Notes under the pieces: model-generated
The model's database searches: none
The model's input: only the letters and a program-made list of their open reading frames with translations
Told to the model about the DNA's origin: nothing
Translations under genes and position numbers: made by a program
Shown here: piece by piece, positions 11,403 to 64,000 of the stretch
How the letters are laid out: every line of letters begins with the position of its first letter
Numbering within the stretch: the first letter of the stretch is position 1
DNA from: a bacterium
Lineage (GTDB): Bacteria; Patescibacteriota; Saccharimonadia; UBA4664
DNA length: 64,000 bases
Direction: 5' to 3'
Assembly: GCA_016699105.1 (NCBI GenBank)
Contig: CP064960.1
Location: 747,696 to 811,695 of the forward strand

Positions 11403-12333
11403 GCAGTTTAAGACGTATGACATTGTTATGATTGGGTCGGGTCCGGCGGCGCTGTCGGCGGCTATATACACGACGCGCGAAGATATTGATACGTTGCTGG
11501 TAGAGAAAGGTGTGATCGGTGGATTAGCTGCCACCACTGACTGGATTGATAATTACCCCGGATTCAAAGATGGCATCTCGGGCTCGATGCTGGCTGAGCA
11601 AATGCGGGGTCAGGCCGAGCGCTTTGGTGCTCAGTTTGCAATGGCTGAGGTGTCGGCAATTGTTGATGAGGGCCGGCTTAAGCGGCTGGTAACTTCAGAT
11701 GGCGACATTCGAGCGCGAGCTGTGTTGATCGCCACTGGCAGTGATCATAAAAAGCTCGGCATTCCTGGTGAAGATGAATATTACTCCCGGGGTGTGCATT
11801 ACTGTGCTACCTGTGATGGAGCGTTTTATCGCAACAAAAAGCTGGTAGTGATTGGCGGTGGCAATTCGGCGGTACAGGAAGCCATCTTTTTAACCCGGTT
11901 TGCTTCTAAGATCGAACTCCTCGTTCGATCTGAGCTGAGGGCATCCGACGTACTCTTGCATGAGCTCGAAAACCATAAGGATAAAATCTCGATACGGCTT
12001 GGGGTAACGCCAGTGTCAATAGAGGGTAATGATATGGGAGTAACCAAGTTACATACTCGCGGTACGCAAGATGGCCGAAGTATGTCGATTGCAATGGATG
12101 GAATTTTTATCTTTATTGGGCTTAAGCCAAATACTGCTTTTCTCAAGGGATCGCCGGTTGCCTTAGATGATGTGGGTCTTGTAACAACGAATAGTCAATT
12201 TGAAACAACTATGCCGGGTGTGTATTGCGCTGGTGACGTCCGCTCTGGAGCAACAATGCAGATTGCCAGTGCGGTGGGCGAAGGTGCCACTGCGGCGCTT
12301 ATCATGCGGCAATGGCTGGAGCGGAGTGCTTGA
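11395..12333 (+). CDS. trxB: thioredoxin-disulfide reductase
   Basis: GSGPAALSAA FAD motif; CATCDG redox-active site; GGGNSA NADPH motif. A GGAGG RBS lies 6 nt before the GTG. Confidence 0.9.
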   Translation: MTEQFKTYDIVMIGSGPAALSAAIYTTREDIDTLLVEKGVIGGLAATTDWIDNYPGFKDGISGSMLAEQMRGQAERFGAQFAMAEVSAIVDEGRLKRLVTSDGDIRARAVLIATGSDHKKLGIPGEDEYYSRGVHYCATCDGAFYRNKKLVVIGGGNSAVQEAIFLTRFASKIELLVRSELRASDVLLHELENHKDKISIRLGVTPVSIEGNDMGVTKLHTRGTQDGRSMSIAMDGIFIFIGLKPNTAFLKGSPVALDDVGLVTTNSQFETTMPGVYCAGDVRSGATMQIASAVGEGATAALIMRQWLERSA

Positions 12334-31464: not shown

Positions 31465-31539
31465 TGGCTGGGTCGGCAGGATTCGAACCTGCGAATGACG
31501 GGACCAAAACCCGTTGCCTTACCGCTTGGCGACGACCCA
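31465..31539 (-). tRNA. tRNA-Gln (anticodon UUG)
   Basis: Folded manually: U1-A72 acceptor (TGGGTCG/CGACCCA); D-loop AAGCGGTAAGGC; anticodon stem ACGGG/CCCGT with loop TTTTGGT; T-arm GCAGG-TTCGAAT-CCTGC; discriminator G; encoded CCA. It matches the E. coli tRNA-Gln architecture. Confidence 0.85.
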
Positions 31540-32623: not shown

Positions 32624-34366
32624 GCTTGTAGTTCTTCGGGCGTTGGGTTCGTCGACTGGAGTTTAAGCAATTGCTCATATAGTCCACCGCTGTGGGCTAA
32701 TTGAGCGGGAGTGCCTTGTTCGCTGACCTGGCCGTGCTCCAGGCATACAATGCTGTCTACATGGGCAATGGTACTGAGGCGGTGGGCAATGATGAGCGTG
32801 GTGCGGTCGCGCATGAGGCGTTCAAGGGCTTGTTGGACTTGGACTTCGGCACGTGAGTCTAAGGCGCTGGTGGCTTCATCTAAGATGAGAATTGGTGCGT
32901 CCTCGAGAATGGCCCGGGCGATGGCAATACGCTGCTTTTGGCCGCCGCTGAGTTTAACGCCGCGCTCGCCTATCTGGGTCTCGAGTTTGTCCGGTAATTC
33001 GTAGACAAATTTGGCATTGGCGGCTTCGATGGCTTTTTGATATTGGCTTCAGTGGATTCGGGTAATCCATAGGTGATGTTGTCGCGAACTGTGCCACTAA
33101 AGAGGGCCGGCTCTGGAAGACGACGGCTATATGTTGGCGGAGAGACTGCTGGGTGACATCGCGAATATTCTGACCATCTATTTCAATCTGACCGGCGGTG
33201 GTTTCGTAAAAGCGACAGAGCAGATTGGCAATAGTTGATTTACCTTGCCCGCTCTCGCCCACCAAAGCTAATTTGGAACCAGCGGCAGCTGCAAAACTAA
33301 TGCCGCGCAATACTGATTGTCCGTCGGCATAGCCAAAACTGACATCACTAAACGAAATTTGGCCGTTGGTAATGCGCATTGGACGCGCGTGGGTTTGTCA
33401 GTAATGGTGGCGGGTGTGTCCATGATATCAAAGAAATCTTTGGAGCCTGCGGATGCTCGTTGCAAACTATCTACAATAAATGAACTCGCAAACAATGGGA
33501 ATTGAGCCTGCGTGACCAATCCAATCAGTAAGGTGAAATCACCAAGTGTAATTACCACTGTAGGTTTGATACACCACGTAGGCGTAAATACCGGCGAATA
33601 TAACGTTGAGTCCAATGCGCCGAGCCACATCATACCAGTGCCACTCGATGGATTGGCCGCGAGTGAGCTGCTCAATTGAATGACGCTGCCTCTTGAAAAA
33701 TTGGCGCTCGAGATTTTCGGATACATAGGATTTAACTGCTCGGATTTGGTTGATAGCTTCGGTAAAACGACCTTGCGTCAGATCGAGGTGTTTGTTGATC
33801 ACTTGTTGCTTGGCTTGCCAGTGACGGCTCGAAAGTGTAGTTAACCAAATGTATAACGGGAATAATCCGCCCAGTAAGATGGCGATGGCCAGGCATAAAA
33901 CGCCAAAATGACGAGCGTCACCATGGCTGACAAAAGAATCCCAGGAAATTGTTGGCCAGGGCATTCATCATATTGGCGATAGTGTTGATGCCACGGTCGA
34001 GGCGGCTGGTGAGACGTCCGCTGACCTGGTTATCGTAAAGCTCAGCGGTAGTGTCAGGATATGGTCGTAGTAGCGGCGTGCCAGTAAGGTGTGGAGTTTA
34101 CTACCTAATTGATCACAGAATCCTTGGATATTGGCCAGAATGGTCGTGAGAAGACTGACCACCAATATGCCGACGATGAGCCAGATGAAATAACTGCCGG
34201 CTGGCAATGTCGGATGTAAGCTTTTTATCTAATCCGTCGACGAGGAATTTAAGAAAAACGGTGTGGCTTGGGCAAATAAAGCCAATATTACGACAAGTCC
34301 GGCGTTGATGAGATAGTATCGCTTCAGGCTCCACGAATATTTGATGATGCGAATGATATCTTTCAT
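32605..34366 (-). CDS. ABC exporter, fused permease-ATPase (MsbA-like), at least 5 apparent frameshifts
   Basis: The N-terminal TMD ([12 protein letters not shown]...FLKFLVDGL), Walker [10 protein letters not shown], signature/Walker B and the C-terminal D-loop IIAHRLSTI are spread over six ORF fragments. Confidence 0.65.
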
Positions 34367-36380: not shown

Positions 36381-37812
36381 TTATATTTTAGTTCGGCGCC
36401 AGCGTGGGCCATTGGGTGTGTCGCTGACGTCAAGGTCGTGGCGCCTGAGTTCGGTACGCAATTTGTCGGCTGCGGCCCAATTTCGTGCTTCACGGGCAGT
36501 TTCACGTTCGGCGATAATGTGCTTTTGAGCGGACGTGATATCTGGTCGATTGTCGAGGTTTAATCCGAGTAATTTGTCGAGTCCGCTCAGGAGTGTGTCG
36601 AAATCGTCATTATCGAGTGTCATGCCGGGAGCGAGCTTGGTGACATATTGATAGACTTCGGCGAGTGCTTGACTGGTTGCCAGATCATCGAGCAAATGTT
36701 GCTGCACCTGCTCGAGAAAATCAGTAATCTCAGTGTCGGCTAAGCGCACTTCCGACAGATTACTCTGATGTTTGAGATCCGCCCACGCGAATAAATTGAG
36801 TAAAGGTATTTTGGGCAGCGGCAACTGATTCCCAGGAAAAGTTCATTTCTGAACGGTAATGAGATTGGAGATATAGCAATCTCAGAGCCAACGGATGAAA
36901 GCCTTTTGGATGACATCTTTGAGTGTGTACGAATTGCCCTTTGATTTAGCCATCTTTGCGCCGTCGACCAAAATAAACTCATTATGTACCCACAGGTTCG
37001 CGGGGTGTCCGTGGGCAGCTTCGGTTTGAGCCATTTCGTTCGGGTGATGGGTGCCAATGTGGTCGACGCCGCCGGTATGGATATCTATCGGGTCGTCGAG
37101 GGTAGCGTGAATGATGGCCGAGCACTCCAGATGCCACCCTGGGAACCCATCGCCCCAGGGTGAGTCCCAGTGCATGGTGTGACCTTGGTATCGGCCGACA
37201 GTAAAGAACCAGACGGCAAAATCAAAGGGACTATGTTTGTCGGGATCGGAAACTACTTCGGATCGCTCAGTTTGTTTGTCAGCTAGTTTTTGACCGGTTA
37301 ACTCGCCATATGTCGGCAATTTTGAGACATCAAAGTAAATGGCCTGTTTGGTTTGATAGGCAAAACTTTTTCGAGCAAGATTTGGACCATGGCGATTTGT
37401 TCGTCAATGAATTCGGTAGCTCGGGCGTAGCTATCATGATATTTGGGCGATTGGTAGGTATTGGGGGCAACACATTCATGGCAGCCATATCGTTCTTGAA
37501 TGCTTCGGTGTAATGGGCGGCAACATCCCAAACCGATTTACCTTCACGGGCGGCACCAGTTTCGAGTTTATCTTCACCTTCGTCGGCATCACTGGTGAGA
37601 TGACCGACATCGGTTATGTTCATGGTATGGCGGACTTTGAGTCCGGCGGCTTCAAGGGTGCGGCGGAGCGTATCGTTAAATACCGCATTGCGTAGATTGC
37701 CGATGTGGTAGTAGTTGTAAACTGTCGGTCCACAGGAATAGAGCGAGACCTCGCCGGGCTTAATGGTGGCGAGCTCTTCAGTCTGTCGGGAGAGTGTGTT
37801 GAACAGCTTCAT
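36381..37812 (-). CDS. cysS: cysteine--tRNA ligase (at least 3 apparent frameshifts)
   Basis: HIGN (HIGH motif), CGPTVY, WHLECSAI, GGVDHIGTHHPNE, KMAKSKGN (KMSKS motif) and a C-terminal DALR-like domain. Confidence 0.8.
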
Positions 37813-55880: not shown

Positions 55881-56410
55881 TTACGCTTTGGTTTCTTGCA
55901 GCGCGTTCAGCAAGTTGATAATACTGCGGACATTGCCAGTCATGACTCCTATGAAGCCAGAAAGCGGAGCGGCAATCGTACCGACGACCTGGGCAAGTAA
56001 TTGCTCGCGGGTTGGTAGATTGGCCAAGGCTTTGACCTGGTCAGGAGTAAGGACTTGACCGTCGCCAGTAATGGCGCCAACAATTTCTAGCGCGTCATGC
56101 TTTTGGCATATTGGAAGATGAGACGAGCCGGAGCTATTTCGTCATCAAATCCCATTGCTAAAGCCATGGGGCCAGAAAAGGTTTTGGGGTCGACGTTTTC
56201 GAGGTTTTTGGTGCTAGCAGCAGCTAGACGCAAGAGAGTATTCTTGGCGACCCGGTAGGTGATACCGGCTTCACGTAATACTTCGCGCAATTCCTCAACT
56301 TCGGTAACGGTCAGACCACGGTAGTCGGTCATGACGGCCAGTTTGAGGCGACCAAGTTCGTCAGTCAGCGTACCGACTGCTTTTTCTTTGGCTGCTCGAG
56401 AAATGGCCAT
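55881..56410 (-). CDS. rplJ: 50S ribosomal protein L10 (apparent frameshift near 56100)
   Basis: MAISRAAKEKAVGTLTDELGRLKLAVMTDYRGLTVTEVEELR N-terminus. The C-terminal helix is in an adjacent frame. Confidence 0.8.
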
Positions 56411-56551
56411 GTGACTTACCTTTCTCTATTAAAAAATCTGGGTGCACACCACGCCAGACATTGGTAGAAACTGATGAAAGTTTTTTACCTCGGTAGCAGA
56501 TTAAGCTTTGGGCATGCCCGCTGCAGCTACTGTCTTGGGTGAACGAGACCC

Positions 56552-56580
56552 ATTGTATCTGTTGAACGAAAGTATGTCAA
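56552..56580 (-). promoter_or_regulatory. near-consensus sigma-70 promoter TTGACA-17-TACAAT upstream of the rplJ leader
   Basis: Hexamers at 56575-56580 and 56552-56557 on the minus strand, about 140 nt upstream of the rplJ ATG. Confidence 0.5.
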
Positions 56581-56912
56581 GCTTTGCCTGGGTGCGGAGA
56601 TGTAATATGCCTTCGTAAGGTTTGTCTCGTATGGGATACATCGTTATTGATGGCAAACAGGTCTTCGTTGAGCATATTAACGATGCGCTTGTGCTCAGCT
56701 CTGTTATTCAAAATGTGGCTATCGAGTCTATTGCTCAGACTTGATGAAATACTTTTCAAATCTGTGACTTCAGATTTCAATTCTGTTATATTCGCATTCA
56801 GCTGTACGACATCAAGATGGACGGTATTGAGTCCGACTTCAAGACGGGAGGCAACACGGCCGACAATAGTTTCAATATCTTTGCGTATTTCGGCTTGGTT
56901 TAGATTTCCCAT
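56577..56912 (-). CDS. hypothetical coiled-coil protein
   Basis: ORF of 111 aa with a heptad-like pattern. Confidence 0.35.
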   Translation of the reverse strand: MGNLNQAEIRKDIETIVGRVASRLEVGLNTVHLDVVQLNANITELKSEVTDLKSISSSLSNRLDSHILNNRAEHKRIVNMLNEDLFAINNDVSHTRQTLRRHITSPHPGKA

Positions 56913-56962
56913 GCGCCCAATTATAAACCGAACAAGGGGCGAACGTCAATCTTGAATTGCTG

Positions 56963-58486
56963 CTAAATATTAGTTACAACAGTCTCAGCTCCCGACAAAT
57001 CCAATCCTGCTTCCAAGGCATTTTGGACGGAAATCATTAAGGGTTGAGGTAGCTCGGATATGCGAAACCAGCTCCATTCTTGCAATTTATAGGGTTCCAT
57101 CACTTTCGGTTCACCTATAGGACAGTCAGCCATCAAGGCAAAGGTAAAATAATGCTTTTTGTTTTGTGCAAACAGGTCATTGGTGACTGCTCCCAACCGC
57201 CAAGCTTCAATTGGTATAGTGAGGTCGGTTTCTTCGCGGACTTCACGGCTGGCGGCTTGGGCCGGCGATTCGCCAAACTCGATGTGCCCACCCGGTGGCG
57301 CCCAGACGCCTGATGCATGACCGGTGGTGCGAAATCCCATTAAGACGCGATTGTCACGAATGAGGTAGGTACCAACGCCGATTCCGGGGTGCTGCGCTGT
57401 TTTGATGCTATTCATTTCGCCAGTCCCCAATAAATTTATAAGTTTTGGTGTTGTGCCAATGTGAGCCGGAAAATTGGCAATGCGGATATGTGAATTTCTT
57501 TGGTGGGCATAACCTTTTCCAACCATGTGACCTACAGCTGATAAGCTATCGAGTAGCTGGCCATTGTTGCCGGTAATTTCGGCAACAATGACGGTAGATG
57601 ATCGAAATACAGGATTGGTCACGAGCGGGCGCAAATGAGGGTGAGTTTCCAGAGCTGTATATATCGCAGCTGCTTGCTGATCAATTTGGGAACGAATGGT
57701 TGTCAGTCCAATGTCGAGCATATCGCTGGCTACCCGCCCAAGTAGGTAAATACCGAGACCGTTTGGTGTTTCGGGGGTTTGGTGCTTGGCGGCTGATTTG
57801 GCTAGACTAAGGAAACTGTGATAGCTACCAATAACTTGACCAGCTGCTAATAGTCGTGAAGCTGTGTCGAGAGCTCGGGGACTAGCAATGAGTACGCCCA
57901 GCCCGGAGGGCAGGCCAAAGGCTTTTTGGACCGAGAAGAATGCCAAGTCGGTTTGGTATAAATCGAGGCCGGTTAAGGGAGCTGAAGACACCATATCGAC
58001 AGCTAGCAATGGTTTTGGGTAACGACTGTGGAGCCGGTTGATTGTTCCCACATCGAGTGCGACGCCGGTGCTTGTTTCGTTGTGCGTGACGGCAATTAGT
58101 TCGACATCATCAGGTACGACTAATTGGTCAAGATCTGGTCTACTGCCCCACTCGGCCGTAGATCTTATGACGGTTTTGCCAAGCTGCTCCGCTATGGTGG
58201 CGAATTTTGCTGAAAAAGCGCCCATTTCGATATGGTAAGAAGTGGTGGAGACGGTATTTTGGATAATGCGCTCCATAGCTTCGGTGGCACTGGCTAAAAA
58301 CCAGACATGGTAGTCAGTTGGGATCTCGAGCAGGAGACGCAAATTATTTTCCGTATATGTCAGCATGGAACTAAATTCTGGGCTGCGGTGCGACCAGCCG
58401 GCAACACCATCAGACAGAGCATCGGCAATAAATGATTCAATCTTGGGGTATGGCTGTGAGGGTCCAGGGTTGAAATTAATCGTCAT
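56963..58486 (-). CDS. serC: phosphoserine aminotransferase fused to a C-terminal NUDIX domain
   Basis: FNPGPS, SHRS and the PLP-Lys region VQKAFGLPSGLGVL (residues 1-360), then Nudix box GGHIEFGESPAQAASREVREETDL (residues 380-507). A single uninterrupted ORF. Confidence 0.75.
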   Translation of the reverse strand: MTINFNPGPSQPYPKIESFIADALSDGVAGWSHRSPEFSSMLTYTENNLRLLLEIPTDYHVWFLASATEAMERIIQNTVSTTSYHIEMGAFSAKFATIAEQLGKTVIRSTAEWGSRPDLDQLVVPDDVELIAVTHNETSTGVALDVGTINRLHSRYPKPLLAVDMVSSAPLTGLDLYQTDLAFFSVQKAFGLPSGLGVLIASPRALDTASRLLAAGQVIGSYHSFLSLAKSAAKHQTPETPNGLGIYLLGRVASDMLDIGLTTIRSQIDQQAAAIYTALETHPHLRPLVTNPVFRSSTVIVAEITGNNGQLLDSLSAVGHMVGKGYAHQRNSHIRIANFPAHIGTTPKLINLLGTGEMNSIKTAQHPGIGVGTYLIRDNRVLMGFRTTGHASGVWAPPGGHIEFGESPAQAASREVREETDLTIPIEAWRLGAVTNDLFAQNKKHYFTFALMADCPIGEPKVMEPYKLQEWSWFRISELPQPLMISVQNALEAGLDLSGAETVVTNI

Positions 58487-59723
58487 TTAGTAGAGCAGCC
58501 TCAGTTTGATAGTCTCGGGGATTTGGACAAGAGCTCGACGGACAGTTTGGCTCGAAGTCTGGCTTAGATCGGTAATAACATAGCCTATCTCACCGGACGT
58601 TCCTAAGAATTGACCAATAATATTGGCACCAGTAGCTGCGAGTATGTTATTAATTTTAGCAAGCACGCCCGGCACGTTACGGTGGATATGTAAGAGGCGG
58701 TGGCTTCCCTGTTGGGGCGGCAAAGACACATTGGGTAGACTGACACCGAGACTGGAGTCACCGTGGTTGACAAAATTGAGAAATTTATCAGCGACAAACT
58801 GGCCAATGGCGGCTTGGGCTTCCATGGTACTGCCGCCAACATGGGGCGTGAGAATAACGTTGGGCAGTCCTTGTAACGGTGAACTAAGTCGACCGCCTTT
58901 GTCGGGTTCATCTGGATATACGTCCACCGCCGCTCCGGCCAAATGCTGGTTAGCTATTGCAGCTGCGAGGGCAGATTGATCGACCACGTGACCGCGGCTC
59001 AAGTTGAGAAAGTAACTGCCACGTTTCATACGGTCAAATTCGGAAGGGCCAATTAAATCGGCATTAGCCGGGCGTCCATCGACATGGATTGAGACAACAT
59101 CAGCTAAAGATAGGAGTTTGGCGAGGCTCTCTACTGGTTGGGCATTTCCCAAAGCTAATTTGGGCACCAGATCGAAAATCGTACTTTCATTCCGAGAGAT
59201 TCAGCCAGAACCGAAAGCTGACTGCCAATGTTGCCGTAGCCAACGATACCTAAAGTTTTACCTCGAAGTTCATGACTGCCTTCGGCGGACTTATGCCACT
59301 CTCCCGCGTGTGTCCGTGCCGATAGCAACACGGTGCGCCGGATGAGCATAATCATTTCGCCTAAAGCTAGTTCTACTACGCTGCGAGTATTGGAAAAAGG
59401 GGCATTGAAGACGGCTATACCTTGCTTGGCAGCTGTCGTCAGGTCAATTTGATTGGTTCCAATACAAAATGCTCCAATTGCCAATAGTCTACGGGCGTTG
59501 GTGAGTACCTCAGTGGAAACTTTGGTGCCAGATCTGATGCCAAGTAAATGAACGTCGGCGATGGCTGTGGCGAGCTCGGTTGGGCTGAGCGATCCACGGT
59601 GGGTTTCGATTTGGTAGCCTTCAGCTTGGAAGATATCGATGGCCGTTCGGTGAATATTTTCCAACAGCAGTACTTTGATACGGTCTTTGGGGAATGAAGT
59701 TCTAGTGGGCTGGGAGGTCATGG
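58487..59723 (-). CDS. serA: D-3-phosphoglycerate dehydrogenase (apparent frameshift near 59160)
   Basis: NAD motif GIVGYGNIGSQ, catalytic His region and C-terminal ACT domain. The two halves are in adjacent frames. Confidence 0.8.
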
Positions 59724-60968
59724 TAGTACCAATTGAGATGCTCAACGATATGTTTAACCTGGGCGGATACGGTAGAGTCACTGGCTCGGCCTTGAGCTAG
59801 GTCACCAATGAGTTGTCCGATCTCACCAGCTTGTCCGACGGTTAATCCGCGGCTGGTTAGCGCGGCAGTGCCAAAGCGCATGCCACTCGGCTTCCAAGCT
59901 GATTTGGTGTCAAATGGTAGCATATTGCGGTTGGTGATGATACCCACGGATTCGAGCGCTTTTTGAAAAGCCAGACTATCGAGCTGGTTAGGCAGTTTCG
60001 CTAGACATAAATGATTTTGACTGGGGCTGACAATATCAAGCCCAGCTGCTGCCAGGCCTTGCTCAAGTGCTTTGGTGGTATCGATGACGGCTTGCGAATA
60101 GGTGATAAAATCACGGCCGTCAGGATACTGATCAACTCCGTTGATCTCCAGGAGCGATTGACCGACGGCGGCAATGGCATGGAGATGGGGTCCGCCGTGG
60201 GTACCGGGAAAGATGGTTTTGTTAATGATGCCGATATGCTCTTTTTGGCAAACAACATGGCACTGCGGGGTCCGCGCATGGTTTTGTGAGTGGTCATTGA
60301 TACGAAATCGGCACCGTTGGCTCCAGCTTGGAAGGGTGTGTCGTGGAGGCCCGCTGCCACCAAGCCGTTGATGTGAGCAATGTCTGCCAGTACTATCGCT
60401 CCGGCATCGTGGGCGGCTTTGGTCAGTTTGGTAAAACGGTAGGCTCGGGGATAGGCGCTATACCCAAGAATAACCAGCTTGGGCTGATGAGCTTTAAGTT
60501 TCGCTAAATAATCGGCTTCGTCAATCTCAAACGTACCTGGTTCGGTCTCGGTGACGTCATAATTGACCAGTTTGAAAAATTTCAAAAAATTGGACGTGGC
60601 GTGTAAATGAGATAAATGCCCCCATTGGCCAAATTTAAGCTCATGATGGTATCGCCGGCTTCGAGCATGGCTAAAAAGACTACAGCATTGGCAGGTGATC
60701 CGCTTAAAACCTGAAGGTTGACTTCGTATTCGCCGGTTTGGTCGTAAGCGGCCAAAGCTTGGCTGGCTACAAACGTTTCCATTTCGTCGGCCAAGACATT
60801 TCCGGCATAGTAGCGTTTGCCGGGAGTACCTTCGGCGTATTTATTCATCCAGACGCTGCCGAGTAACTCGAGGACTTTTGGCGAAGGATAGTTTTCACTG
60901 GCGATTAAATTCAAGCTGTCACGTTGGCGGGCATATTCACGTTTAGTCAGGTCAAACAGTTGGTTCAT
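59702..60968 (-). CDS. glyA: serine hydroxymethyltransferase (at least 2 apparent frameshifts)
   Basis: SENYPSPKVLELLGS, PLP-Lys TTHKTMRGPR and a C-terminal segment with GTAALTSRG, read across three ORFs. Confidence 0.8.
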
Positions 60969-60999
60969 GACGAATTATCCCTTATACCAATTGGTCTTA

Positions 61000-62646
61000 T
61001 CATATCACGGACGATACGAGACGACTGACAGTTACGGTTTGGGGTATTTGGCGCGGATGACATGGGTACCGTCGTGATGGGGCACCAGTTCCATATCGGC
61101 GAATAACAAGTGGGTCTAAGCTTGATAACACGCGGTAGACGTTGACGGCCATTTGTCTAATTTCAGTTTCGGCGTGTTCATTGGCACGCATATTGATAAT
61201 ATGCCGCCAGGCTCGAACATTGCCGGTGACCATGGCAAATGTCTCAGTATCGTTAGGCAGCTTGGAGCGGGCAGCTTGTTGGACTTTTTTACGCAAATCG
61301 GTTTTTTGATCGGCTGACATAATCTGATTACCCGTCGATTGCATCGCTAGGAGACGCTCGGTAGTGACGGCATAACGCTTGGCGGCATGATCGATGTCGG
61401 CTTCAAACTCGGCGTGTAATCGGGGATCGGCAGCATATTCTGGGCGCTCGACGAACCTCAAGACTTTGCCAGAGACATACCGTTGTGACAGTTGAGAGTA
61501 TGCCATACCAGCGCGGTGACGGACGAGCTCATGCGTTAAGCTGCGTGAAATACCGTAGATAAATAAACTGTAATTGGCATGTTCGAGGACAGATCCATGA
61601 CCGCTCGACAATATGTTGTCGATGTAACGATCTGCGCGGTCGTTCATGGTGCGCTTGGGGCCGTAACTGGCGTAGCAAGCTTGGCCAGCCGTCTTGATGA
61701 GTTGAGTGGCGTCAGGAAGCGGTGTGGGATCGTCGATATATTGGGGAAAATCGAGTTCGGGTGCAAAACCTTCGAGAAAGGGCTTCAATCCACTAACATC
61801 AACACGAGGCGCTGCCGTCATGACGACGCCGGGCTGACGTAAATAAGGTGTACCGGCGCCAGTTTGAAATGCGGTTGCGTGAAGAGCCGGGTACCCTAAT
61901 TGCGAGGTGGTAATTGGCGTCAAGCCAGCTTGGTTAGGGCTACCGGAGTGGTAGCTAGGGCTTGATAGTGGCATTGGCGTTTTCTCCTCTGGTCGCTGGG
62001 ATATTAATTTTTCGACATGTGACCATATGGCGCGATTAACGGTATCGATATTGGCGGTTGCATCAATGACGGGGTAGTGACGGTCTGCAGCTTCAGACAG
62101 ATATCCCTGTCGAGCTCGCTCATAGAATTCCGTTTCTAGATTGTCGAGCCTATCTCCAGCTCCACGGTCAGCTTTGCGTTGGGCAAATGATGACGGTGGG
62201 CCATCAAGTATAATCACCAAGTCCGGTGTTGTATCTGTTACAGTAAAATCACAAATAGTCCGGATTACATCGACCGGGATGTCTTCTTGGCGACCGTAAC
62301 CTTGATAGGCAATCGTAGTGAGGAAGCTGCGGTCAGCGACTACCCAGATACCTTGTTCGAGCGTACGGTTGATGTGCTCCATCAATCCAGAGCGAGCGGC
62401 ATTAAATAACAATACTTCGGTGCGGGCTGAAATCTCGTATTGAGGGTCAAGTAATATCTTGCGCACAGCGCGGCCGACGGCGTCTCCAGCAGGTTCGCGG
62501 ACACTTTTAGCTTCGATACTGGCAGCCCGTAATTGTTCAAGCACGAGATCACGCTGAGTGGTTTTACCTGAGCCATCAATACCTTCGATAATAATATATT
62601 TGCCACGCTGATGGCCTTGCGGTGTCATAACGGTAGTGGCTCCCAA
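61000..62646 (-). CDS. thymidylate kinase fused to FAD-dependent thymidylate synthase (Tmk-ThyX)
   Basis: The N-terminal part has the P-loop IIIEGIDGSGKTTQ and DRS motif VADRSF (Tmk). After a Pro/Ser-rich linker comes the ThyX signature RHRAGMAYSQLSQRY (RHRxxSxxxxSxRY). Confidence 0.75.
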   Translation of the reverse strand: MGATTVMTPQGHQRGKYIIIEGIDGSGKTTQRDLVLEQLRAASIEAKSVREPAGDAVGRAVRKILLDPQYEISARTEVLLFNAARSGLMEHINRTLEQGIWVVADRSFLTTIAYQGYGRQEDIPVDVIRTICDFTVTDTTPDLVIILDGPPSSFAQRKADRGAGDRLDNLETEFYERARQGYLSEAADRHYPVIDATANIDTVNRAIWSHVEKLISQRPEEKTPMPLSSPSYHSGSPNQAGLTPITTSQLGYPALHATAFQTGAGTPYLRQPGVVMTAAPRVDVSGLKPFLEGFAPELDFPQYIDDPTPLPDATQLIKTAGQACYASYGPKRTMNDRADRYIDNILSSGHGSVLEHANYSLFIYGISRSLTHELVRHRAGMAYSQLSQRYVSGKVLRFVERPEYAADPRLHAEFEADIDHAAKRYAVTTERLLAMQSTGNQIMSADQKTDLRKKVQQAARSKLPNDTETFAMVTGNVRAWRHIINMRANEHAETEIRQMAVNVYRVLSSLDPLVIRRYGTGAPSRRYPCHPRQIPQTVTVSRLVSSVI

Positions 62647-63320
62647 CGGTTATCTTTGAAGGCACGTGGCAACATCTGTTCGGGGCTCCAAGTGCGAATT
62701 AATGATGAAAGATCGGTACCTCCTTGATACTTGCCGATAGTACCATAATGACGTTCAACAGGGCCGGTTTCGTGAAATACTATTTGAGCCACACGCTCCC
62801 CCACCGGCAATGGCACCGATTCACGTTGATTGAGATTGTATATTTCCATGGTCCAACGGTTAATATAGCCAGGATCACCCCACCCTGCATCGAAACAAAC
62901 TGATATACCGTTTCGACCCCAACTTGACCGGGATTTCATTTCGGTTGTACCGGGCGGATTAATTCCAATAAACTCGTGGGTATGTGCTAAAACACGCTCG
63001 CCAGGTCTGAGTACTATGATCGGCTGATTGTCGGGAATGCCACGAAAAAGGCCGACGGCCATATTTAGCGCACCAGTCGGCGTGTTTGAGCGCGCGCAGT
63101 GGTCCGTTGAAATAGCGTTCGACATCTTCGGCGTCAAAGGATTATACGTGTCGCGATTGTCCATGCGCTCGGTGGTGTAAAACCACTCGCCAAGCGTGAC
63201 GTCGACACTTGAACCACGAATATGATCCATATTTAATGGATGGATGACAATTTGACCGGTTTTAAGGGCGGATTTAATGTCTGAATCACTGTAAACCATA
63301 TCTGGTACAAATCGTATCAC
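62625..63320 (-). CDS. dcd: dCTP deaminase
   Basis: SRSSWGRNGISV and IDAGWGDPGYIN-like motifs of the dUTPase/Dcd fold. Confidence 0.65.
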   Translation of the reverse strand: MIRFVPDMVYSDSDIKSALKTGQIVIHPLNMDHIRGSSVDVTLGEWFYTTERMDNRDTYNPLTPKMSNAISTDHCARSNTPTGALNMAVGLFRGIPDNQPIIVLRPGERVLAHTHEFIGINPPGTTEMKSRSSWGRNGISVCFDAGWGDPGYINRWTMEIYNLNQRESVPLPVGERVAQIVFHETGPVERHYGTIGKYQGGTDLSSLIRTWSPEQMLPRAFKDNRWEPLPL

Positions 63321-63350
63321 ATCTGATCGTCAAACGTCCAAATAAGTTTG

Positions 63351-63956
63351 TTATAGTTGTGTACGTAACCGTCGCGACTGTGGATTATCTAATTTTTTGA
63401 GATAATCTATGCCGTAATAGATTGAAGCTATCACAACGGGTGGATACGCACACGATGTACTCGAGCTGCTGATGTCAGCTAGAAGTTCAGGAATCGTAAA
63501 TACTTGTGGAACAAAATTGGCGCCTGGTTCGTCATATGCTTCGGTAGTGATATCGCCGCCTAGCGCTAAAAATGAATAGCATTTACCTGATTGGCGGCTG
63601 GAATCAAAATAAGATTGGGCGGTTAGGTAAATTTGGCCACCTGTGTATCCGATTTCTTCCTGCAGTTCTCGAACGACTGTCTGCTCCGGATTTTCGTTAC
63701 CATCGATTAAGCCAGCTGGTATTTCACGCTGAACAGATGCAATTCCGGGACGATAGTGGTCAAGTAGCCATACTCTGTCGCGAGAATCAATAACTACGGC
63801 CAGCACAAAATCATGTGTTTTTGTGAGGAAATAAGGATCTAATATATGCCCATCTGAGGTTTTTAACGCATGTTCCCAAACACTCAAAAATGGAGAGCAG
63901 ATGAGCTGTTTGCTCCTGATACTAGTCCATGTGGCAAACTTAGCCAACGGTCTCAT
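63351..63956 (-). CDS. NUDIX hydrolase
   Basis: Nudix box AGLIDGNENPEQTVVRELQEEIG. Confidence 0.7.
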   Translation of the reverse strand: MRPLAKFATWTSIRSKQLICSPFLSVWEHALKTSDGHILDPYFLTKTHDFVLAVVIDSRDRVWLLDHYRPGIASVQREIPAGLIDGNENPEQTVVRELQEEIGYTGGQIYLTAQSYFDSSRQSGKCYSFLALGGDITTEAYDEPGANFVPQVFTIPELLADISSSSTSCAYPPVVIASIYYGIDYLKKLDNPQSRRLRTQL

Positions 63957-64000
63957 ATTTATTTTTTCGTTGAGAGCGTAGCGATAGTAGTAGCAGTGTC

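Follow-up and report, generated by a model that had tools for sequence, protein, structure and literature searches.

A probable fusion of thymidylate kinase to flavin-dependent thymidylate synthase in a small clade of Candidatus Saccharimonadales

In the thymidylate pathway, coupling or channeling has its textbook precedent in the bifunctional dihydrofolate reductase-thymidylate synthase (DHFR-TS) of protozoa and plants. Flavin-dependent thymidylate synthase (ThyX) methylates dUMP with methylenetetrahydrofolate (CH2-H4folate) and NADPH and releases tetrahydrofolate (H4folate), so that no DHFR is needed, and thymidylate kinase (Tmk) phosphorylates dTMP to dTDP. Solved structures represent each enzyme, among them ThyX of Mycobacterium tuberculosis (2AF6/3GWC) and Tmk of Escherichia coli (4TMK), but comparison by sequence and by Foldseek found no PDB chain covering both domains. 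Here we analyze a minus-strand gene, tmk::thyX, which joins a Tmk to a ThyX in one open reading frame (ORF) within a 64,000-nucleotide stretch of contig CP064960.1 from a bacterium of the Saccharimonadia (positions 747,696 to 811,695; hereafter the window). As in DHFR-TS, two consecutive enzymes of thymidylate metabolism lie in one chain; DHFR-TS, however, pairs a ThyA-type synthase with dihydrofolate reductase, both of other folds, and joins folate recycling rather than dTMP phosphorylation, and no homology is implied. We put at roughly 80% the probability that tmk::thyX is a genuine, selectively maintained fusion, carried by a small clade within Candidatus Saccharimonadales (Saccharibacteria/TM7, Candidate Phyla Radiation or CPR) and formed when neighboring tmk and thyX genes lost the stop codon between them.

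Architecture and conservation of the fusion

An earlier reading made from the letters of the window (the sequence-only reading) had described a single ORF of 548 amino acids (aa) joining Tmk to ThyX, and had suggested checking it by a domain search and by looking for the fusion in relatives. Both checks bear it out. The minus-strand ORF at 61000..62646 holds IIIEGIDGSGKTTQ (the P-loop), ADRS, and RHRAGMAYSQLSQRY in the ORF listing, and Pfam places Thymidylate_kin (PF02223) at residues 20-207 with 124.8 bits and Thy1 (PF02511) at residues 311-512 with 155 bits, above the respective cut-offs of 27 and 24.8 bits; in relatives, the same two domains are called as one gene. The single ORF thus stands, but its length does not: the final ~30 residues of the 548-aa ORF align with no ThyX because a homopolymer at ~61109 has one T too many and puts them out of frame, a shift that had been overlooked. 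The corrected protein of 531 aa begins by homology at ATG 62628 (MTPQGH..., as in the relative P0001), stops at TAA 61034..61032, and ends in LDPLLFADMELVPHHDGTHVIRAKYPKP followed by the stop, matching the end of P0001 exactly.

Both halves retain the motifs and folds of their families. The Tmk half shows, in translation, the P-loop EGIDGSGKTT, the DRS motif (as ADRS), and the arginine-rich lid QRKADRGAGDR, all invariant in the four fusion proteins; it shares the P-loop, the DR(S) motif, and the lid with E. coli Tmk (112 bits by sequence, fold TM 0.88), aligns with bacterial Tmk structures in Foldseek at TM 0.86-0.90, and has as its nearest relatives 212-aa stand-alone Tmks of other Saccharibacteria (52% identity). 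What distinguishes it from free-standing bacterial Tmk is that no stop codon intervenes and the frame reads on into ThyX. The ThyX half aligns with 2AF6, 3GWC, and 3FNN at TM 0.85-0.88 (target-normalised), and with M. tuberculosis ThyX in particular at TM 0.87, 36-37% identity, and 159 bits by sequence; it shares the RHR...SQLSQRY region and the C-terminal DGT motif of the ~300-aa actinobacterial, Chloroflexi, and CPR type, to which the M. tuberculosis enzyme belongs, but that enzyme lacks the ~60-aa N-terminal extension of the fusion and has RHRHFSYSQLSQR where the fusion has RHRAGMAYSQLSQR. Closer still are uncultured free-standing ThyXs of 301-323 aa, 60-77% identical to the fusion and encoded on CPR-like contigs with the same nucleotide gene cluster; these carry the same N-terminal extension, and differ in that the window protein is preceded covalently by a whole Tmk. 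In the intact P0001, the Tmk half reaches 135.1 bits on the NCBIfam equivalog model TIGR00041 (cut-off 83.25), and the ThyX half 134.2 bits on TIGR02170 (cut-off 87.9). By these comparisons, both domains appear to be ordinary members of their families.

An AlphaFold2 (AF2) model of P0001, built on a 66-sequence alignment, has a predicted local distance difference test score (pLDDT) of 87, with mostly 74-97 across the Tmk domain, and consists of two folded domains with disorder confined to residues 215-229. The Pro/Ser-rich linker of the sequence-only reading is therefore a disordered stretch of only ~15 aa; the remainder is the N-terminal extension, partly folded and native to this ThyX subfamily, that free-standing ThyX also has.

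A search of 5.8 billion proteins yielded three full-length relatives that carry both Pfam domains. In each of these three lineages the fusion is a single gene, and the contigs number at least 17 in all: P0001 (531 aa, 97% identity to the window, 1 contig), P0002 (533 aa, 80%, 5 contigs), and P0003 (518 aa, 80%, 11 contigs). These contigs come from differing samples and assemblers and are independent short-read assemblies, and one fusion-bearing contig belongs to a metagenome-assembled genome titled uncultured Candidatus Saccharimonadales. The gene order dcd-fusion-glyA(-serA-serC) is conserved in relatives. When a profile built from the four fusion proteins was run against 1.84 billion cluster representatives, the sole full-length match was P0003, and the remaining long matches were either intein-containing ThyX (P0121, P0123, and P0124) or separate Tmk-ThyX-like families; among 50,697 phage records, none covered 80% or more of the fusion protein. 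The three intein-containing proteins are ThyX homologues of 495-664 aa, interrupted by intein-splicing, LAGLIDADG, or NUMOD3 insertions.

Substitutions between the lineages are saturated at synonymous sites (dS), and nonsynonymous divergence (dN) is 0.05-0.08 in the ThyX core, the slowest-evolving portion of the fusion, 0.11-0.17 in Tmk, and 0.5-1.0 in the linker. The linker DNA is strongly divergent between lineages, including a 13-codon difference in length, but it is always open and in frame. Purifying selection is visible on both halves, and the preserved frame suggests that the fusion itself is selectively maintained.

Origin of the junction and competing readings

Unfused precursor arrangements are preserved in related loci. 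In L022, tmk ends in TAG and is followed by a 14-nucleotide (nt) spacer with a purine-rich ribosome-binding site, the thyX ATG, and then glyA; in L017 separate tmk and thyX genes are 46 nt apart; and in L011 they overlap by 4 nt. Within the fusion, an in-frame ATG (Met219) lies 3-15 residues ahead of a shared GLTPI-type motif, the same range in which the start methionine of free-standing ThyX (e.g. P0005) is found, and free-standing Tmk (212 aa) ends just short of the Met219 point. For these reasons we read the fusion as a complete Tmk set directly against a complete ThyX, joined when the stop codon of tmk was lost. On this reading the Shine-Dalgarno-like AGGAG ahead of Met219 would be left over from the ribosome-binding site of the ancestral thyX, and may still be in use, and Met219 would be left over from its start codon.

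Could the fusion be an artefact of assembly or sequencing, in which separate tmk and thyX genes were merged by a homopolymer indel or a lost stop? In close relatives tmk and thyX do stand side by side as two genes, and the window is not free of error: compared with L005, a contig of an independent run that is 98.67% identical over 6.16 kb, it differs by six single-base indels, all in homopolymer runs, which hit dcd, the thyX C-terminus, glyA, and serA (Table 1). All four genes are intact in L005, and substitutions between window and L005 show purifying selection (dN/dS 0.15 in Tmk and 0.12 in the ThyX core), so we read the six indels as sequencing errors rather than signs of pseudogenisation. 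None of them lies near the Tmk/ThyX junction, which is open and identical in L005, and in-frame junctions of differing length and sequence are found in L001-L004 and L006-L009, all from independent short-read assemblies. The L005 comparison leads us to reject an artefact, which we regard as vanishingly improbable, and it upholds the claim of the sequence-only reading that the linker carries no frameshift. With about one homopolymer frameshift per kb in the compared stretch, ORF-level calls elsewhere in the window need the same comparison.

A different reading grants that the chain is open but holds that the cell makes mainly two proteins: the internal Shine-Dalgarno and ATG would drive most ThyX as a free protein of ~313 aa, and the fused chain would be a minor, tolerated, or linker-clipped product of little catalytic meaning. 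The AGGAG and ATG, 6-9 nt apart, are invariant in all four fusion DNAs, and hence in three lineages, despite flanks and linker diverged to saturation; such pairs are rare in the window, where among 159 internal in-frame ATGs of long ORFs only 3 have GGAG or GAGG at -16..-5 and at most 1 has AGGAG or GGAGG; the product from Met219 would be 313 aa, inside the 301-323 aa range of free-standing homologues; and the linker is disordered in the AF2 model. However, ribosomes starting at tmk must make the full fusion because no stop codon intervenes, the frame has been kept through indels of 13-15 codons and saturated substitution, and constraint on the protein could account for the conserved Glu and Met codons. 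Moreover, the older ~780-aa fusions described below have no Met near their junction, and a fusion without an internal start is therefore viable in the phylum. We consider a predominantly two-protein output unlikely, but free ThyX may also be made alongside the fusion, since the old Shine-Dalgarno and ATG are kept inside the linker.

It is also conceivable that only one half is active and that the other serves as scaffold or regulator. The related proteins P0268, P0247, P0237, P0251, and P0258 have weak or no Thy1 scores and no RHR, and the window ThyX motif itself deviates from the textbook form. Yet both halves exceed equivalog cut-offs; the ThyX core is the part of the chain that has changed least across lineages, and it is 60-77% identical to free-standing ThyXs with the same motif variant; Tmk retains its P-loop, its DRS motif, and the arginines of its lid; and no second tmk, thyX, or thyA lies within the window. 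We judge a pseudoenzyme half very unlikely.

Four points weigh against a genuine bifunctional fusion. i) The window copy is itself frameshifted near the ThyX C-terminus, which we put down to sequencing error, although this is not proof. ii) The predicted TM-score (pTM) of the AF2 model is 0.61, with no confident orientation of one domain to the other. iii) The ThyX signature motif is RHRxxSxxxxSxR, and RHRAGMAYSQLSQR departs from it by one extra residue and by Ala for the first Ser; RHR and the S-x-R end are present, however, and align to RHRH-FSYSQLSQR of M. tuberculosis ThyX, and the altered motif is invariant in every aligned free-standing member of the same ~300-aa ThyX subfamily. iv) ThyX is a tetramer and Tmk a dimer, and both would have to be accommodated by one chain.

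We nevertheless favor the genuine fusion. The protein comprises a complete class-II-like Tmk (residues 1 to ~214), a disordered stretch of ~15 residues, and a complete ThyX (residues 219-531); the ThyX half would convert dUMP, CH2-H4folate, and NADPH to dTMP, and the Tmk half would convert dTMP and ATP to dTDP. We infer that both activities are retained, and that the fusion would provide for equimolar co-expression and proximity of the two; perhaps a ThyX tetramer at the core could pass dTMP to Tmk domains on its periphery, and some free ThyX may come from the internal start that has been kept. Both enzymes are textbook, and nothing categorically new is at stake. The locus offers a clean Rosetta-stone fusion of consecutive steps of the dTTP pathway, with a traceable stop-loss origin in which the old ribosome-binding site and start codon are still visible, and a natural construct for studying dTMP channeling and the way in which a dimeric partner fits onto a ThyX tetramer. 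Humans lack ThyX, which is also a drug target.

A longer Tmk-ThyX fusion in the same phylum

A distinct and more widespread Tmk-ThyX fusion was found in at least 120 clusters (P0255 and P0276-P0394) of proteins 768-795 aa long, in which Tmk is followed by a two-repeat ThyX. All of those with a taxon in their source are assigned to Candidatus Saccharimonadales, and most Saccharimonadales carry this ~780-aa Tmk-tandem-ThyX form. NCBI and JGI name these proteins, where they name them, only 'dTMP kinase'; because the ThyX domain goes unnamed in such entries, thymidylate synthesis may be recorded in error as absent when the metabolism of CPR bacteria is reconstructed. The Tmk-ThyX architecture is already visible in precomputed Pfam annotations. 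A full-text literature search found no description of either fusion, but most subscription journals lie outside its coverage, so that this is absence of evidence only.

The two fusions are alike in that Tmk is N-terminal and ThyX C-terminal, in phylum, and in position, right after dcd and near rplJ-rplL; the Tmk half of the ~780-aa type (P0255, 781 aa; locus L014 932-3277) is 41% identical to that of the window. They differ in that the ThyX half of the longer form is ~550 aa, has two Thy1 stretches, and shows no BLASTP similarity to the window ThyX, and in that no Met lies near its junction. In a Tmk tree, which is distance-based (neighbor-joining) only and of moderate support, the window-type Tmk groups with free-standing Tmks (L016 tmk1/P0174 and P0218; bootstrap 83 and 74) and not with the ~780-aa fusions. 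The ThyX halves, unrelated by BLASTP, and the separation in the Tmk tree lead us to reject membership of one family. The shorter form is thus probably a second, independent Tmk-ThyX fusion within the phylum, though an older fusion may instead have had its ThyX domain exchanged.

Five further Tmk-ThyX-like proteins of 546-646 aa, the P0268, P0247, P0237, P0251, and P0258 already mentioned, score 28-39 bits for Thy1 in four cases and have no Thy1 match at E<=0.001 in P0258; all have lost the RHR motif, as in ...IRDSGVASAISTQQLSPRYGY. Judged by these sequences, they may descend from the long fusion as pseudoenzymes.

We wish to offer one broader proposal, tentatively and with the expectation that it may well fail in part or altogether. 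At least two separate Tmk-ThyX fusion events in Saccharibacteria, involving ThyX types without detectable sequence similarity to each other, would imply selection for a physical link between dTMP synthesis and its phosphorylation, in a metabolon in which a ThyX tetramer passes dTMP to Tmk in ultra-small, nucleotide-scavenging cells; in addition, the internal start of the younger fusion would yield free ThyX, and mixed tetramers would set the ratio of Tmk to ThyX.

The gene cluster and its neighborhood

The sequence-only reading had called the locus a compact dTTP-synthesis module with dcd immediately downstream. The module is borne out and is larger than claimed, extending on one strand from a NUDIX gene through dcd, tmk::thyX, glyA, and serA to a serC-like/NUDIX ORF (Table 1). 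That dcd adjoins the fusion is correct, but it lies transcriptionally upstream, because on the minus strand its stop codon shares the 4 nt ATGA with the start ATG 62628 of the fusion; the identical 4-nt overlap is called in relatives. Nor was the expected absence of a separate thyA or tmk contradicted: tblastn found no second tmk, thyX, thyA, tdk, or dNK within the 64-kb window, to which the result is confined.

Table 1. Features of the thymidylate cluster in the window, and indels relative to L005
Feature	Position	Strand	Remarks
NUDIX hydrolase gene, first of cluster	63351..63956	-	
dcd, dCTP deaminase family, 224 aa	62625..63299	-	PF22769 116 bits; ORF spans 62625..63320
tmk::thyX fusion gene	61032..62628	-	531 aa after dropping one extra T at ~61109
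Tmk domain, residues 1-214	61987..62628	-	PF02223, 4TMK, Foldseek, AF2 (scores in text)
Shine-Dalgarno-like AGGAG	61984..61988	-	9 nt upstream of in-frame ATG
Disordered junction, residues 215-229	61942..61986	-	AF2 pLDDT <50 only here
Internal in-frame ATG (Met219)	61972..61974	-	putative ancestral thyX start codon; kept in P0001-P0003
ThyX part, residues 219-531	61032..61974	-	native N-terminal extension and Thy1 core with RHRAGMAYSQLSQRY; PF02511 (score in text)
glyA, serine hydroxymethyltransferase	59702..60968	-	intact 422 aa in L005
serA, phosphoglycerate dehydrogenase	58487..59721	-	NF008759 599.7 bits on L005 copy
serC-like aminotransferase and NUDIX ORF, last of cluster	56963..58486	-	507 aa
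Indels in dcd, window vs L005	63139, 63049		mutually compensating; ~30 codons garbled
1-nt homopolymer insertion (TT vs T), window vs L005	61108..61110 (~61109)	-	frameshifts ThyX C-terminus
Indels in glyA, window vs L005	60624, 60247		split into three frames
Indel in serA, window vs L005	59179		split into two frames

The dcd copy in L005 scores 99.5 bits against TIGR02274 (equivalog cut-off 92.8). Dcd supplies the deoxyuridine nucleotide, serine hydroxymethyltransferase (GlyA) recharges folate from serine, and SerA and SerC make serine. The gene order suggests that translation of the fusion would be coupled to upstream dcd via the ATGA overlap, and that downstream glyA, serA, and serC would regenerate the one-carbon donor. 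A promoter and terminator scan of 56000-64000 gave counts within ~1.6 standard deviations (sd) of shuffled sequence (11 promoters vs 10.7; 13 terminators vs 8.3, sd 3.0).

The 507-aa ORF that ends the cluster combines a SerC-like aminotransferase (residues 1-341) with a NUDIX domain (~369-425). In L001, serC and NUDIX are two genes in different frames that overlap by 8 nt, and the window ORF retains a Met where the NUDIX gene would begin. Either a second fusion by stop loss or a homopolymer artefact could account for this ORF; exact look-up found the 507-aa protein on record nowhere else.

NUDIX genes lie in or beside the dcd/tmk/thyX/glyA cluster in several lineages: at 63351-63956 and 56963-57390 in the window, at 14326-14778 in L001, at 11925-12272 and 14035-14547 in L006, and at 1-75 in L019. 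One might speculate that a NUDIX enzyme supplies the dUTP (or dCTP) pyrophosphatase step.

In L001, L004, L006, L014, L016, L017, and L019, the thymidylate cluster sits between rplK-rplA and rplJ-rplL, in an otherwise conserved ribosomal-protein neighborhood. Its internal order is highly variable: L010 and L012 have an inserted tdk or dNK, and L016 and L019 an inserted dCMP deaminase. No lineage has closer free-standing Tmk and ThyX than L016, which also has two tandem tmk paralogues (1262-2622; 212 and 240 aa) directly after dcd, only ~20% alike relative to the window Tmk.

Elsewhere in the 64 kb, the sole RNA gene found is a minus-strand tRNA-Gln (anticodon TTG) at 31465-31539, with no other Rfam match at the gathering threshold. 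At 32954-33964 and 36381-37319, the minus strand carries runs of mutually overlapping ORFs, each of 105-152 aa, that resemble further frameshift-split genes.

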